DNA of 32,497 nucleotides from a virus (taxonomy: Duplodnaviria; Caudoviricetes). The stretch's first letter is position 1; each line of letters opens with the position of its first letter. The DNA is taken from the IMG/VR virus record IMGVR_UViG_3300020045_002760, positions 1 through 32,497 of that record; one strand, given 5' to 3'. Position numbers and translations under genes: made by a program. The notes beneath the pieces are model-generated. The model was not told the origin of the DNA. It did not search any database and was given only the letters and a program-made list of their open reading frames with translations. Below are positions 15,856 to 20,768 of the stretch, one piece after another.

Positions 15856-15927
15856 AGCGCTTTGGTGAAGTTGGTATCCCGTTAGCCTCATAAGCTAGAG
15901 TCACAGGTTCGATTCCTGTTCGCGCAA
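15856..15927 (+). tRNA. tRNA-Met(CAT)-like, degenerate
   Basis: T-arm ACAGG-TTCGATT-CCTGT, anticodon arm TTAGC-CTCATAA-GCTAG, D-loop TTGGTA. Three mismatches in the acceptor stem and no encoded CCA. Confidence 0.7.
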
Positions 15928-15958: not shown

Positions 15959-15987
15959 GCCTCTCAGTAAAATGAGGGGCTTTTTTT
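15959..15987 (+). terminator. intrinsic terminator ending the late operon
   Basis: GCCTCTCA-GTAAAA-TGAGGGGC followed by T7. Confidence 0.85.
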
Positions 15988-16727: not shown

Positions 16728-16850
16728 CGTTGAGCATTGTTGCAGTAGCGTACTGACACAAGACAATGCAACGGACAAACATTAATAAAAACAAGAATTA
16801 CTAATCATTAAATTAAGCAAAAATCTAGCTATAAGTACAATATATTGTTG
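16725..16850. repeat. cassette site S1 (degenerate stem)
   Basis: TAAC gttga gcATTGTtgcagTAGC ... GCTAtaagtACAAT atatt GTTG; left arm similar to S6. Confidence 0.7.
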
Positions 16851-16878
16851 TAGGTAGGTTTTTTAAACATCACGGAAT

Positions 16879-17109
16879 ATGAAAACATCATTAGAAAAAG
16901 CACGAGAATTATATGATAAATTCGATGAGTTACTTCCATGCGAAGGAACAACTACAGGGGATACACCAATTGAATGTGCTATTATTGTTATTGACGAAAT
17001 AGATTCTATTTATCAAAAACTAACTCCAAAAGACGATCCTTATCGTTATTTGATAGAATTAGAATACTGGCAAGATGTGAAAGAAAAATTGAAGAAAATA
17101 TGTGCGTAA
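16879..17109 (+). CDS. cassette 1: hypothetical phage protein
   Basis: KARELYDKF...CAIIVIDEI...YWQDVKE. Flanked by IRs at 16847-16861 and 17130-17144. Confidence 0.75.
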   Translation: MKTSLEKARELYDKFDELLPCEGTTTGDTPIECAIIVIDEIDSIYQKLTPKDDPYRYLIELEYWQDVKEKLKKICA

Positions 17110-17140
17110 CTTTGGCTACAAAGTTGAGCAAACTTACCTA

Positions 17141-17265
17141 CAACGTTTTGACGCTTGGTGCGGTTGGGGCTAAAAAAGCCAAATTAATAACTATAAAAAT
17201 AATCATTATGATACAAGACAATAATAAAATTCAAGACGATGCCCAATCGCTCCAAATGGCTGTTA
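17141..17265. repeat. cassette site S2
   Basis: CAAC gtttt GACGCTTGGTGCGGTTGGG ... CCCAATCGCTCCAAATGGC t GTTA. Confidence 0.8.
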
Positions 17266-17804
17266 TGCACAGTGCATTTACGCATTTGATGTTAGATATT
17301 GAAACAATGGGGAATAAGTCAAATTCTGCAATAATAAGTATTGGAGCAGTTGAATTTGATATTAATACTGGTAAAACTGGAAAGGATTTTTACAGGAACG
17401 TATCATTAAAATCGTCAATAGATTTAGGTTTAAATATCGATGCTGATACTGTTATGTGGTGGATGAATCAAAGTGATGATGCTCGTAAAAGTTTAACTAA
17501 CGAAAAAGCAATTTCAATAAATCAGGCACTTGTTGATTTTAGAGAATTTTGTAATAAAGAATATCAAATTTGGGGCAATTCCGCAAGGTTTGATTTAGGA
17601 TTAATGCAAGATGCTTATAATAAAGCAAACATCGATATTCCTTGGGATTTTAGAAAAGAAAGATGTGTTAGAACTTTGGTAAGTTTCAATCCTGAAATAA
17701 AGAAAAATTTAGACTTTAAAGGAACTGCACACAATGCTTTATCTGATTGTTATCATCAAATTGAATATTGTCGTTTAACGTGGTCATCTTTGCATTGTGC
17801 ATAA
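17208..17804 (+). CDS. cassette 2: DEDDh 3'-5' exonuclease/exoribonuclease
   Basis: HLMLDIETMG, WGNSARFDL and HNALSDC motifs. Start placed at ATG 17208 (A-rich context) rather than 17100. Confidence 0.85.
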   Translation: MIQDNNKIQDDAQSLQMAVMHSAFTHLMLDIETMGNKSNSAIISIGAVEFDINTGKTGKDFYRNVSLKSSIDLGLNIDADTVMWWMNQSDDARKSLTNEKAISINQALVDFREFCNKEYQIWGNSARFDLGLMQDAYNKANIDIPWDFRKERCVRTLVSFNPEIKKNLDFKGTAHNALSDCYHQIEYCRLTWSSLHCA

Positions 17805-17930
17805 CGTTATTCGGCTTTGTCTGGTGCCGAAAATTCAAGACAAAACATAAAAGTACACGATAATTTTTAAATTAAAAAACAATGAGTAAAGACACAAAAC
17901 CAAGTAAGGCATTAGTCAAAACCGATGTTA
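17802..17930. repeat. cassette site S3
   Basis: TAAC gttat TCGGCTTTGTCTGGTGCC ... GGCATTAGTCAAAACCGA t GTTA. Confidence 0.8.
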
Positions 17931-18325
17931 TAGGAAGCCAAGATGAAGCCGATTTTTATCCTTGGAGTTCTCAGGAAGAAAAGGATTTTGAGTATTCAAT
18001 AATGGATGAATGTTATGCCGAAGAAAGAAAGTTCGATGAAAACAACAAAAGAATATCGGATAGGATATTGAAAATACTAAAAGCTGTAAAAAGCGAAGAA
18101 TGGTATTCTGAATTAATGGAATATTCAAAAGAAGCTGAAACTCATAATCCATTTTCTATTGTTAGAAAACCTAAAGGGCAATTTCAGGAAGAAGATGAAT
18201 TTAAATTACTAGGTGGTGTATGGGTCGAGCAATCTAGTTCTTATCCTTGTGAAGATTGTTATTATGGAACAGTAACCGTTAAAATAGACGAAAAACGTTA
18301 TTTAGAAATGCCATTCGCTTGTTAG
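17882..18325 (+). CDS. cassette 3: acidic hypothetical protein
   Basis: 147-aa ORF; IRs at 17927-17941 and 18340-18354. Confidence 0.75.
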   Translation: MSKDTKPSKALVKTDVIGSQDEADFYPWSSQEEKDFEYSIMDECYAEERKFDENNKRISDRILKILKAVKSEEWYSELMEYSKEAETHNPFSIVRKPKGQFQEEDEFKLLGGVWVEQSSSYPCEDCYYGTVTVKIDEKRYLEMPFAC

Positions 18326-18350
18326 CCGATAGTTGTGTATTGGTTTCCTA

Positions 18351-18480
18351 TAACGGATTGTTGCTATAAGAGGATTTTCGGATGAGTACAAAACCAACTT
18401 TCCGCTTTGCCAAATCACCACAAATACAGACTAATAAAACGATTAATCACTATGCCTAAAATCTCTTATAGCAACTGTTA
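18351..18480. repeat. cassette site S4
   Basis: TAAC ggatt GTTGCTATAAGAGgATTTT ... AAAATCTCTTATAGCAAC t GTTA, with one bulged G. Confidence 0.85.
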
Positions 18481-18513
18481 TCAGGAGTACGATAATTTAA
18501 AACTAAATATGTT

Positions 18514-18741
18514 ATGAAAATAAAAGACACAGAATATGGATTTTCAATTTTTCCTAGTTATGGAAAAGTACAAGCTGAAATATATAGGGTTTCAGAATTT
18601 AAAGATGGATTTAAAATGAATATAAGATTACTAGACAAAGAATTTGGCTCAATGTGGAGAACTCCAAATGAAGAAGATTATAAAAAAGCTAGAGAATGGG
18701 CTGACTTACAAATGAAAGGTATCTTAGATGCAAACTCGTAG
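18514..18741 (+). CDS. cassette 4: hypothetical protein
   Basis: 75-aa ORF; IRs at 18477-18490 and 18741-18754. Confidence 0.7.
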   Translation: MKIKDTEYGFSIFPSYGKVQAEIYRVSEFKDGFKMNIRLLDKEFGSMWRTPNEEDYKKAREWADLQMKGILDANS

Positions 18742-18750
18742 TATTCCTGA

Positions 18751-18876
18751 TAACGCTTTGCCTGTATGGTAAGTGGCGTGTAAATAAGCCAAAACATTAA
18801 ATAATTACTAACATTAACAAACACAAAACTATGTTTAAATTAAGCCAAATCAAGCCATTTATTATACAGGCTGTTA
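18751..18876. repeat. cassette site S5
   Basis: TAAC gcttt GCCTGTATGGTAAGTGGC ... GCCATTTATTATACAGGC t GTTA. Confidence 0.85.
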
Positions 18877-19130
18877 GTAGCTGTTTTTCTTCTAAACCAC
18901 CAAAATTACATTGGTACGATTGCCAATTTTATTACAAGAAAAAAGGTGCTGATATGTATTGTGTAGATTTTAATTTACAAGTAGGATTTGTAAATCAAAA
19001 AGACATTTTAAACGGACGAAAAGTAAAAAAACTAACAGGGTATAGGGTTGAAGAATTTCCTAAAAAAGTTCTTGATAATGGATTATTTTATTTTAAGATA
19101 AATGCTTATTTAGGGCAGTTCTCAAAATAG
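18831..19130 (+). CDS. cassette 5: hypothetical protein
   Basis: 99-aa ORF; IRs at 18873-18887 and 19124-19138. Confidence 0.7.
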   Translation: MFKLSQIKPFIIQAVSSCFSSKPPKLHWYDCQFYYKKKGADMYCVDFNLQVGFVNQKDILNGRKVKKLTGYRVEEFPKKVLDNGLFYFKINAYLGQFSK

Positions 19131-19134
19131 CTAC

Positions 19135-19262
19135 TAACGTTGGATAATTGTAGCAGTAGCGTACTGATACAAAACTATCATTCAGTTGAAGAATGATAAA
19201 ACCAAGAAAACGCAAAACATTAAATACAAAAACCATACAGCTATTGCTACAATTATGTGTTA
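19135..19262. repeat. cassette site S6
   Basis: TAAC gttgg ATAATTGTAGCAGTAGC ... GCTATTGCTACAATTAT gt GTTA. Confidence 0.85.
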
Positions 19263-19819
19263 CTAGCTGTTTTTATTCACTTATTATGGATTTAGGAACT
19301 TTTATCAGAGAAAACAAAAAAAGCGGTGGATTATCAATTGAAATATCTAACCAAGTAGAAAAATTATGGAATGAATATAAACTTGAAAAAACGGAAGAAA
19401 ATTGCAGTATTATTTCTGCTGATTTTGGAAGATTGGGAAGTTTGAATATTAAAGAAATAGCATCATTTGAAGAAGAAAAAGTTTTCAAATATGAAAGTGG
19501 TTCTTATGATTATATTTCTACAAAAACAAAATCAACTACAAATATATTGTGGACTGACTATCAAGAAATCGAGCCATATAATAGACAAAGTGGATTATAC
19601 GCAAATGGTTCTTCTTTTGAAAGTTTAGGAAAACCAATTTTAGAAAAAGAAGATTATCGTGAATTTGTTGCAAAACACGTTTATAATGGAAATGTAGCTT
19701 TTGCGGTTTGGGGATATGGATTTAATAATTTTTATGAATCAATAACATTTGGAATTTGCTTAAAAACTGATAAAGTAGATGAGTTTATTTCAAAACTAAG
19801 AGTTCTTATTGGCAAATAG
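19193..19819 (+). CDS. cassette 6: hypothetical protein (alternative start 19286)
   Basis: ORF flanked by IRs at 19259-19272 and 19814-19827. Confidence 0.7.
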   Translation: MIKPRKRKTLNTKTIQLLLQLCVTSCFYSLIMDLGTFIRENKKSGGLSIEISNQVEKLWNEYKLEKTEENCSIISADFGRLGSLNIKEIASFEEEKVFKYESGSYDYISTKTKSTTNILWTDYQEIEPYNRQSGLYANGSSFESLGKPILEKEDYREFVAKHVYNGNVAFAVWGYGFNNFYESITFGICLKTDKVDEFISKLRVLIGK

Positions 19820-19823
19820 CTAG

Positions 19824-19949
19824 TAACGTTATCTCGCTTGGCGAGGTTGGGAAAAGAAAGCCCTAATAATTAAATTAAAAAACCAAAAATGAAAGTACAA
19901 GACCAACATCAAATTAAGCCTGAAACCCAATCTTGCCAAACGAGTGTTA
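19824..19949. repeat. cassette site S7
   Basis: TAAC gttat CTCGCTTGGCGAGGTTGGG ... CCCAATCTTGCCAAACGAG t GTTA. Confidence 0.85.
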
Positions 19950-20701
19950 TGGTTAGTGCGGTTTTTCAAGGAGATTGCCTTGAAATAATGAAGACTATAC
20001 CTGACGAAAGCGTTGATATGATACTTGCAGACTTACCTTATGGAACAACTGCTTGTAAATGGGATACAGTTATTGATTTAGAAAAATTGTGGACAGAATA
20101 TAATCGAATTATAAAAGGGAATGGTGCAATTGTTCTTTTTTGCCAACAACCATTTACAAGCGCATTGATATCTAGTAATTATAAAATGTTTAAATATTTG
20201 TGGTATTGGAGAAAATCACGCCCATCTGGTTTTGTAAATGCTAAATTAAAACCTTTAAAAGATATTGAAGAAATTGCAGTTTTTTCAAAAGGAACAACCG
20301 CAAATAAATCAGTAAATAATATGCCATATTATCCACAAGGTTTGATTGAAGTAAATAAAAAGTGGAAACGCCCCAAGACTTATGGAACTGGAAAAGGTGT
20401 AAACCCAACTCGAAAAAGTCACGAATTAGAAAGAGTAATACAATTTGAAGGATATCCAAGACAGGTTTTAGATTATAATAAACATAACGGAAATCAATTT
20501 CACGAGACGGAAAAACCTGTTGAATTAATTGAGTATTTGATTAAAACTTATTCAACTGAAAACCAAATTATTCTTGATAATACAGCAGGAAGCGGAACTA
20601 CAGGAATTGCCTGTATAAATACAAATAGAAAGTACATTTTGATTGAAAAAGAAGAAAAGTATTTTGATGTCATAAACGAAAGAATTGCTAATCATACGTA
20701 A
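19889..20701 (+). CDS. cassette 7: N6-adenine/N4-cytosine DNA methyltransferase (beta class)
   Basis: GDCLE, DLPYG (motif IV), HETEKP, and ILDNTAGSGTT (motif I). IRs at 19946-19959 and 20731-20744. Confidence 0.9.
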   Translation: MKVQDQHQIKPETQSCQTSVMVSAVFQGDCLEIMKTIPDESVDMILADLPYGTTACKWDTVIDLEKLWTEYNRIIKGNGAIVLFCQQPFTSALISSNYKMFKYLWYWRKSRPSGFVNAKLKPLKDIEEIAVFSKGTTANKSVNNMPYYPQGLIEVNKKWKRPKTYGTGKGVNPTRKSHELERVIQFEGYPRQVLDYNKHNGNQFHETEKPVELIEYLIKTYSTENQIILDNTAGSGTTGIACINTNRKYILIEKEEKYFDVINERIANHT

Positions 20702-20768
20702 GGAAAATGTTCTTATGAAAACGTATCGTAGCATTAACCATAACTAACCGCTACAAGTAAACTAAATT

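Follow-up and report, generated by a model that had tools for sequence, protein, structure and literature searches.

The 32,497-nucleotide (nt) virus record IMGVR_UViG_3300020045_002760 (Caudoviricetes), hereafter the window, meaning the whole linear 32.5-kb stretch that was analysed (CheckV completeness ∼90%), holds an array of seven genes at 16847–20744, each with an arm starting in GTT at one side and a complementary arm ending in AAC at the other. Counting from the G of GTT, the GTT arm of every one of these cassettes has a G at position 11 that faces a T on the AAC arm (7/7). This mismatch is real, selected and general, and it belongs to a variant of integron-like recombination with a specific model of strand choice, in which the G·T pair would act as a strand determinant.

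The position-11 mismatch in the window

The initial annotation had reported the G·T pair in all seven cassettes, together with Watson–Crick pairing at every other position of the arms. The latter is correct for positions 1–14 (positions 1–10 and 12–14 are paired in 7/7) but does not extend to position 15, which is unpaired in three of the seven cassettes (4, 6 and 7), and pairing is over by position 16. The compensated change that had been noted between cassettes 5 and 6 is present. Perfect 10-bp GTT...AAC pairs alone are common by chance, with a mean of 5.3 and a maximum of 9 per simulated window across 30 simulations. The full finder, which combines the arms with an upstream hairpin and ignores position 11, made six calls in the window versus none in 12 shuffled windows; cassette 1 was not called because its hairpin is too degenerate. 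Under random placement, the probability that seven mismatches share one of 11 positions is ∼6e-7, for arms that are not fully independent of each other.

Position 11 in homologous cassettes

Viral contigs and genomes were scanned with one hairpin-family pattern in which position 11 of the arms and a second wobble position, described below, were both left open, and arm partners were picked without position 11. Pattern matches, whose lengths are tightly clustered (mostly 124–128 nt), were found in ∼320 stretches of the genome collection and 99 viral stretches. A first set of 86 arm pairs comprised 83 G·T, three T·T and no Watson–Crick pairs. A wider finder returned 323 records, 179 viral (six of them from the window) and 144 genomic, from which three reverse-strand double calls were removed, leaving 320 that are related and so do not amount to 320 independent events. 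Position 11 is G·T in 314 of these, T·T in five and a probable false call in one, and it is never Watson–Crick, while positions 5–10 take the form of 146 different hexamers with pairing kept. The neighbours of position 11 are paired in 95–100% of cassettes, apart from T·T at position 10, which is tolerated in 49 cases. The place of the mismatch in homologous sites, which the initial annotation had proposed as a check, is thus fixed and not random. The same pair is seen in 25/25 cassettes of a chromosomal array (G001, locus L170, Flavobacterium sp. W1B) and in 5/5 cassettes of the cultured Flavobacterium phage snusmum6-1, and in a separate set found through the AAC arm only the partner base is G in 41/42 and T in 1/42. 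Beyond the five T·T cases among the 320, one T·T occurs in Polaribacter phage P12002L and one, the T of the 1/42, in the second of two reusable frames (frames 1 and 2, described below). Since the homologues show G·T, a few T·T and no Watson–Crick pairs, T is invariant on the AAC arm, and A is never found on the GTT arm.

Mutational bias, codon constraint or dampening of a palindrome could leave a mismatch in such arms, given that deamination can turn G:C into G:T and that some arms are translated. However, both position and polarity are fixed across all of the hexamer contexts, and the mismatch is kept in non-coding arms, in 23/23 cassettes of frame 1 and 41/42 of frame 2. We consider an origin of this kind extremely improbable, and the codon, deamination and palindrome-dampening readings were rejected because the complete lack of Watson–Crick pairs among the 320 contradicts them.

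A second wobble and the predicted folded site

Each window gene is preceded by a hairpin of 117–122 nt, and the inner stem of this hairpin carries a second G·T, at position 11 of its inner (L) box, that the initial annotation had omitted. It is present in 7/7 window hairpins, in 82/84 hairpins of the first set and in 240 of 255 sites of common spacing, five of the latter being Watson–Crick. A dyad relates these wobbles to each other, as would be expected for two protomers of one enzyme. In circle form, the site would read T-N7-AAC, 8 nt, G-C/T-T-N7-G, loop, T-N7-AAC-like, 4 nt, GTT-N7-G. The inner stems of the 255 sites align without gaps, their departures from pairing being mismatches at L-box positions 2 and 11, and C occupies position 2 of the 5′ arm in 225 of them. 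No conserved extrahelical base is present, although one window hairpin allows a bulge. The proposed analogy to the extrahelical bases of attC sites therefore stands at the functional level and not at the structural one, all the more so as the linked enzymes lack the corresponding insertion (see below).

Two other accounts of the wobble bear directly on this anatomy. The G·T could be a shape that licenses the folded site, by telling folded from double-stranded DNA or by bending the arm, with strand choice lying elsewhere and chiefly in the central loop of 8 nt facing 4 nt. The symmetric presence of the wobble in both boxes fits such a role, as does the preference for G opposite T (314 versus five T and no C), which goes beyond the needs of a rule that merely forbids A; the central spacer of attC likewise influences strand choice (PMC5027507). 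Yet T·T is tolerated, in the seven cases given above, whereas T:A is never found, and the T is partly retained at the double-stranded site that ends the array, so we regard a pure shape role as unlikely. Alternatively, T and G could be separate determinants read on double-stranded DNA, the T by a recombinase at the AAC arm and the G by another step or protein at the GTT arm, which would make the mismatch a by-product. Bases that never vary cannot covary, which leaves position 11 by itself uninformative on pairing, and heterodimeric Xer sites do have asymmetric arms (PMC5357621). This account seems distinctly improbable to us, however, because the G/T asymmetry recurs in inverted form in the inner stem and because positions 12–15 covary, which requires the helix to run through position 11.

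The mobile unit and its probable substrate strand

The boundaries of the mobile unit can be read directly from three units that occur in duplicate in two bacterial arrays (100% identity over 1886 and 722 bp, and 99.6% over 1088 bp). These span from the TAAC before a hairpin to the TAAC after the gene, and the sequence diverges immediately outside. Whole-unit BLAST matches to the window also start in TAAC, and in cassettes shared between arrays the upstream hairpin is more similar than the downstream DNA in six of seven pairs. Since the exact duplicates are bounded by TAAC, the mobile unit is TAAC–hairpin–gene–TAAC, with crossover at the AAC end. In integrons the cut strand carries the AAC triplet at the crossover (PMC5027507), and for this reason we infer that here the coding strand folds and is cut. 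The fold of the coding strand is the more stable one at 7/7 window sites and at 313 of 319 sites of the wider set, by a mean of 4.6 kcal/mol.

Because the wobbles and the more stable fold both lie on the transcribed strand, they could also act in RNA, with G·U wobbles in mRNA stems marking processing sites or an RNA intermediate by which cassettes are made or moved; the frames described below take up open reading frames (ORFs) from close to the ATG onward, which an RNA route might also do. We give this reading little credence, since units duplicate exactly at TAAC, array ends adjoin tyrosine recombinases and the two boxes are spaced as in a tyrosine-recombinase site. An Rfam search of the window returned one tRNA and one sub-threshold repeat, with no family matching the cassette structure. 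An RNA step confined to the creation of cassettes could nevertheless exist. Among the public sequencing runs listed, none was an RNA run (best share 0.17); contigs of these public runs contain single cassettes, such as cassette 2 with three differences, ending at 17808.

Array ends and linked recombinases

The last cassette of an array has no downstream hairpin. We tallied 45 such ends, having excluded 58 ‘terminal’ calls that start with G and were taken as missed hairpins. The ends consist of a 5-nt spacer and a half-site whose box position 3 is T in 42/45, and A occupies L-box position 11, placing T on the other strand, in 27/45 against a background of 39% (P = 0.004). The end of the window array conforms at both box positions 3 and 11.

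A tyrosine recombinase gene lies just past eight of 44 array ends and ahead of none of 276 cassettes; the 25-cassette chromosomal array of G001 has one ∼80 nt past its end. Seven of the array-linked recombinases score 132–214 bits against the 265 cut-off of TIGR02249, so that 7/7 fall below it, and their best matches are to XerA. When one of them (from locus L139) is compared with VchIntIA (2A3V), two aligned blocks are separated by ∼16 versus 58 residues, from which it follows that the IntI-specific insertion (I2), which accommodates extrahelical bases (PMC4792948), is absent from the array-linked recombinase. An AlphaFold model and fold search returned a XerA/IntI-type fold and did not reveal which part reads position 11. 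A helix of the linked recombinase with the motif Y-S-x-x-S-x-x-Q aligns with H225 of XerD. Array-bearing genomes carry the array-linked recombinase plus weaker Xer-like matches, and no recombinase gene was found in the window record. The initial annotation had held that the site is read as a folded single strand, and this view gains support from the covariation of each cassette's own ends, from the second, symmetric wobble and from the tyrosine recombinase that adjoins related arrays.

The linked genes fall into two arrangements. Phage recombinases (L034, L040, L051, L064 and L087) are 240–268 aa where read and lie downstream on the same strand as the array, while chromosomal ones (L132, L139, L158 and L244) are ∼350–380 aa, have an extra N-terminal part and are convergent to the array.

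Proposed mechanism of strand choice

We think it probable that the site of each unit folds on the coding strand as a two-box substrate of a Xer-like tyrosine recombinase, and that the position-11 G·T of both boxes directs cutting to that strand rather than to its complement. After excision as a circle, an R box would form by pairing of the AAC and GTT arms and the inner stem would supply the L box, the two being separated by 8 nt on one side and 4 nt on the other. What the enzyme would read is a T at position 11 of the AAC-bearing strand. In the coding-strand fold T11 is present and would be kept in the helix by G, whereas the complementary fold would have C·A there, lack the T and be less stable. 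If the enzyme needs T11, then G is the only partner that preserves pairing of the stem and still deprives the complementary fold, which has C·A there, of the T, and the T·T exceptions obey the same rule of T on one arm and never A on the other. The unit would enter in a fixed orientation through a single strand exchange at TAAC with a double-stranded attI-like site, replication resolving the product, and C instead of T at L-box position 2 may block a second exchange. Since the window phage encodes no recombinase, the enzyme would have to be supplied in trans, by the host or by another phage. A precedent for such a contact is XerH, which reads an outer-arm thymine through a helix of its catalytic domain and in which replacing this thymine abolishes recombination (PMC5241119); T11 lies in the same zone, within one base.

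Several observations weigh against this proposal. The register of T11 relative to the T4 read by XerH is uncertain by one base. On the attI side the T is only 60% conserved, being absent in 18/45 array ends, and 36/44 array ends have no adjoining recombinase; the pairing of enzyme and site rests on adjacency. The mismatch at L-box position 2, which is common (156/255), has a polarity that runs against that of position 11, since the coding strand has the C·A and the complement the G·T. The folding advantage of the coding strand is partly due to the wobbles themselves. Lastly, the joint of an excised circle was not seen among the listed contigs of seven public runs, which is no evidence of its absence.

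Comparison with known recombination systems

The array resembles integrons (IntI, attI and attC; PMC5027507, PMC4792948) as well as attC-site clusters without integrases (CALINs) in being a series of promoter-poor single-gene cassettes. Also shared are a folded single-stranded site with R and L boxes, a GTT/AAC core and an AAC crossover triplet, complementary ends of the same cassette, a recombinase gene beside the attI-like end (in related arrays, not in the window), and a strand asymmetry that arises from non-canonical features. A scan for sigma-70 promoters stayed at chance level (30 versus 27), with a model that does not cover Bacteroidota promoters; since the cassette genes are read toward the attI-like end, a cassette promoter (Pc) located there cannot drive them. 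Unlike in integrons, where attC follows the gene and the non-coding (bottom) strand recombines, the hairpin precedes the gene and the coding strand is the likely substrate. The R box pairs over 14–15 bp around an 8/4-nt centre, two symmetric G·T wobbles are present and a conserved extrahelical base is not, and the IntI insertion is missing from the linked recombinases, which score below the TIGR02249 cut-off. The system thus works like an integron but departs from integrons in three defining features: the insertion, the polarity of the site and the extrahelical bases. With seven clustered units and no recombinase in the record it resembles a CALIN, but its sites are not attC proper.

Qi et al. 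2023 (PMC9892861) interpreted two sites of P12002L as ordinary attC sites in divergent arrangement. Of these, P12002L_attC1 is a junction of the window cassette family, ahead of a methyltransferase cassette, and attC2 is the array-end site read backwards. attC1 is the one of six sites that IntI1 did not recombine (PMC9892861), a result that does not bear on the wobble because the attC1 primer, as listed, ends before position 11. P12002L has a further cassette of the same family (L231:14622–15197), with G·T and an annotated inner gene in antisense, which is absent from the available text of Qi et al.

The attP(+) site of CTXφ and the sites of integrative mobile elements exploiting Xer (IMEX), which are used by XerC/D (PMC4246890, PMC4792948), are likewise folded and single-stranded, without extrahelical bases, and share a Xer-type enzyme without I2 and an apparent single exchange. 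They differ in lacking a dedicated recombinase family, an attI-like site of their own, long variable cassette arrays and fixed wobbles. XerH–difH (Bebel 2016, PMC5241119) shares the conserved outer-arm thymine, contact with which sets the arm that XerH binds and cuts first, but difH is a double-stranded chromosome-resolution site and its thymine sits in a normal pair. A literature search on a CTXφ attP wobble and on thymine contacts of XerD found nothing useful, and no description of the present system or its wobble was found in the literature searched, which covered neither subscription papers nor bioRxiv supplements.

Layout of the window array

The window encodes siphovirus-type tail, lysis and replication genes, and the closest relatives of its cassettes are in Flavobacterium and other Bacteroidota. 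All array features lie on the + strand. The hairpin before cassette 1 (16729–16846), the farthest from the attI-like end, is degenerate (9/19 pairs; inner wobble G16745·T16832). Its left arm resembles that of unit 6 (74% over 62 nt) and its right arm that of frame 1; the hairpin looks chimeric, and cassette 1 may be immobilised. The body of cassette 1 (16847–17144; arms 16847–16861 and 17130–17144; G16857·T17134) carries a 76-aa ORF (16879–17109, phrog_21441) within frame 1, whose 42-nt tail is at 17103–17144. The hairpin of unit 2 (17145–17261; inner wobble G17163·T17247) contains the ATG of gene 2, and the body (17262–17805; G17272·T17795) encodes a 3′-5′ exonuclease (PF16473, ORF 17208–17804); this unit recurs in locus L001 among different neighbours. 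Unit 3 comprises a hairpin at 17806–17926 (inner wobble G17824·T17912) and a body at 17927–18354 (G17937·T18344; ORF 17882–18325, phrog_11125). In the hairpin of unit 4 (18355–18476), G18373 faces T18462 or, alternatively, a one-base bulge forms there, and the body (18477–18754; G18487·T18744) has an ORF at 18514–18741 that starts 3′ of the arm. Unit 5 has its hairpin at 18755–18872 (inner wobble G18773·T18858) and its body at 18873–19138 (G18883·T19128; ORF 18831–19130), and unit 6 follows with a hairpin at 19139–19258 (inner wobble G19156·T19244) and a body at 19259–19827 (G19269·T19817; ORF end 19819). Unit 7, with a hairpin at 19828–19945 (inner wobble G19846·T19931) and a body at 19946–20744 (G19956·T20734), encodes an N6/N4 DNA methyltransferase (PF01555, ORF 19889–20701). 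The putative attI-like array end (20745–20760) lacks a hairpin and consists of the 5-nt spacer and an L-box-like half-site whose box positions 3 and 11 are T and A, respectively.

Four of the ORFs, with starts at 17208, 17882, 18831 and 19889, begin within the hairpin loop of their own unit, so that translation of the 3′ stem and the GTT arm gives an N-terminal extension. At 0.8 kb upstream of the array lie a tRNA gene and a hairpin resembling a terminator (15856–15927 and 15959–15980), and a glycosyltransferase gene (PF00534, 589–1704), possibly for a DNA or capsid modifier, is found amid the head–tail genes. The two genes right of the array have no relatives among the viral contigs, and hence no empty-site version of the window phage was found.

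Reusable frames around cassette genes

Frame 1 (16729–16878 and 17103–17144 in the window; L249–L271 elsewhere) consists of the hairpin, the arm, a leader and a 42-nt tail with a small hairpin, and recurs around 23 ORFs in 15 clusters. These ORFs start 30–32 nt after the G, and 22/23 stop 35–46 nt before the end. Two frame-1 singletons can be assigned to the main family by PHROG or alignment; remote homology may go unnoticed among short proteins, so that the clustering somewhat overstates the independence of the framed genes. Frame 2 (L273–L330; also in snusmum6-1, L272:6072–5835) surrounds 42 ORFs in 30 clusters, 16 of the 30 stopping at a TAG that belongs to the frame. The two frames have one gene family in common, and homologues of framed genes occur unframed in ordinary phage operons at five of the six other loci that gave a full-length match. 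An alignment of cargo proteins contained no conserved stretch usable for a profile search. Of the 23 frame-1 and 42 frame-2 cassettes, none was an empty frame. These patterns suggest either repeated capture or exchange through conserved ends; exchange could pass genes from frame to frame, but entry into a first frame must have come before. The frames are a new finding here and a lead on how cassettes are made.

Implications

Integron surveys report almost none in Bacteroidota, with one complete Bacteroidetes integron from IntegronFinder 2.0 (PMC9024848), and Ghaly 2021 (PMC8352920) does not mention the phylum. This scarcity contrasts with the hundreds of genome and viral stretches that match a single hairpin pattern. 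The cassettes carry methyltransferases, five cassettes of the family being present in snusmum6-1, and host-range differences among such phages have been linked to methyltransferase content with the cassettes passing unnoticed (PMC7077304). The wobble provides a simple signature for a detector, and a strand code based on it would let a tyrosine recombinase recognise folded DNA in a new manner that needs no constancy of sequence.

It is quite possible, though we hold the idea with slightly more doubt than conviction, that a second, independent integron-like system of gene capture operates in Bacteroidota and their phages, in which two G·T wobbles give the strand cue to a Xer-like recombinase that lacks the IntI insertion, and reusable frames pick up ordinary phage genes. 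If so, the system would stand, as a living intermediate, between phages that hijack Xer and integrons, and would offer a direct handle on the creation of gene cassettes, a process that frames holding dozens of unrelated genes open to testing.

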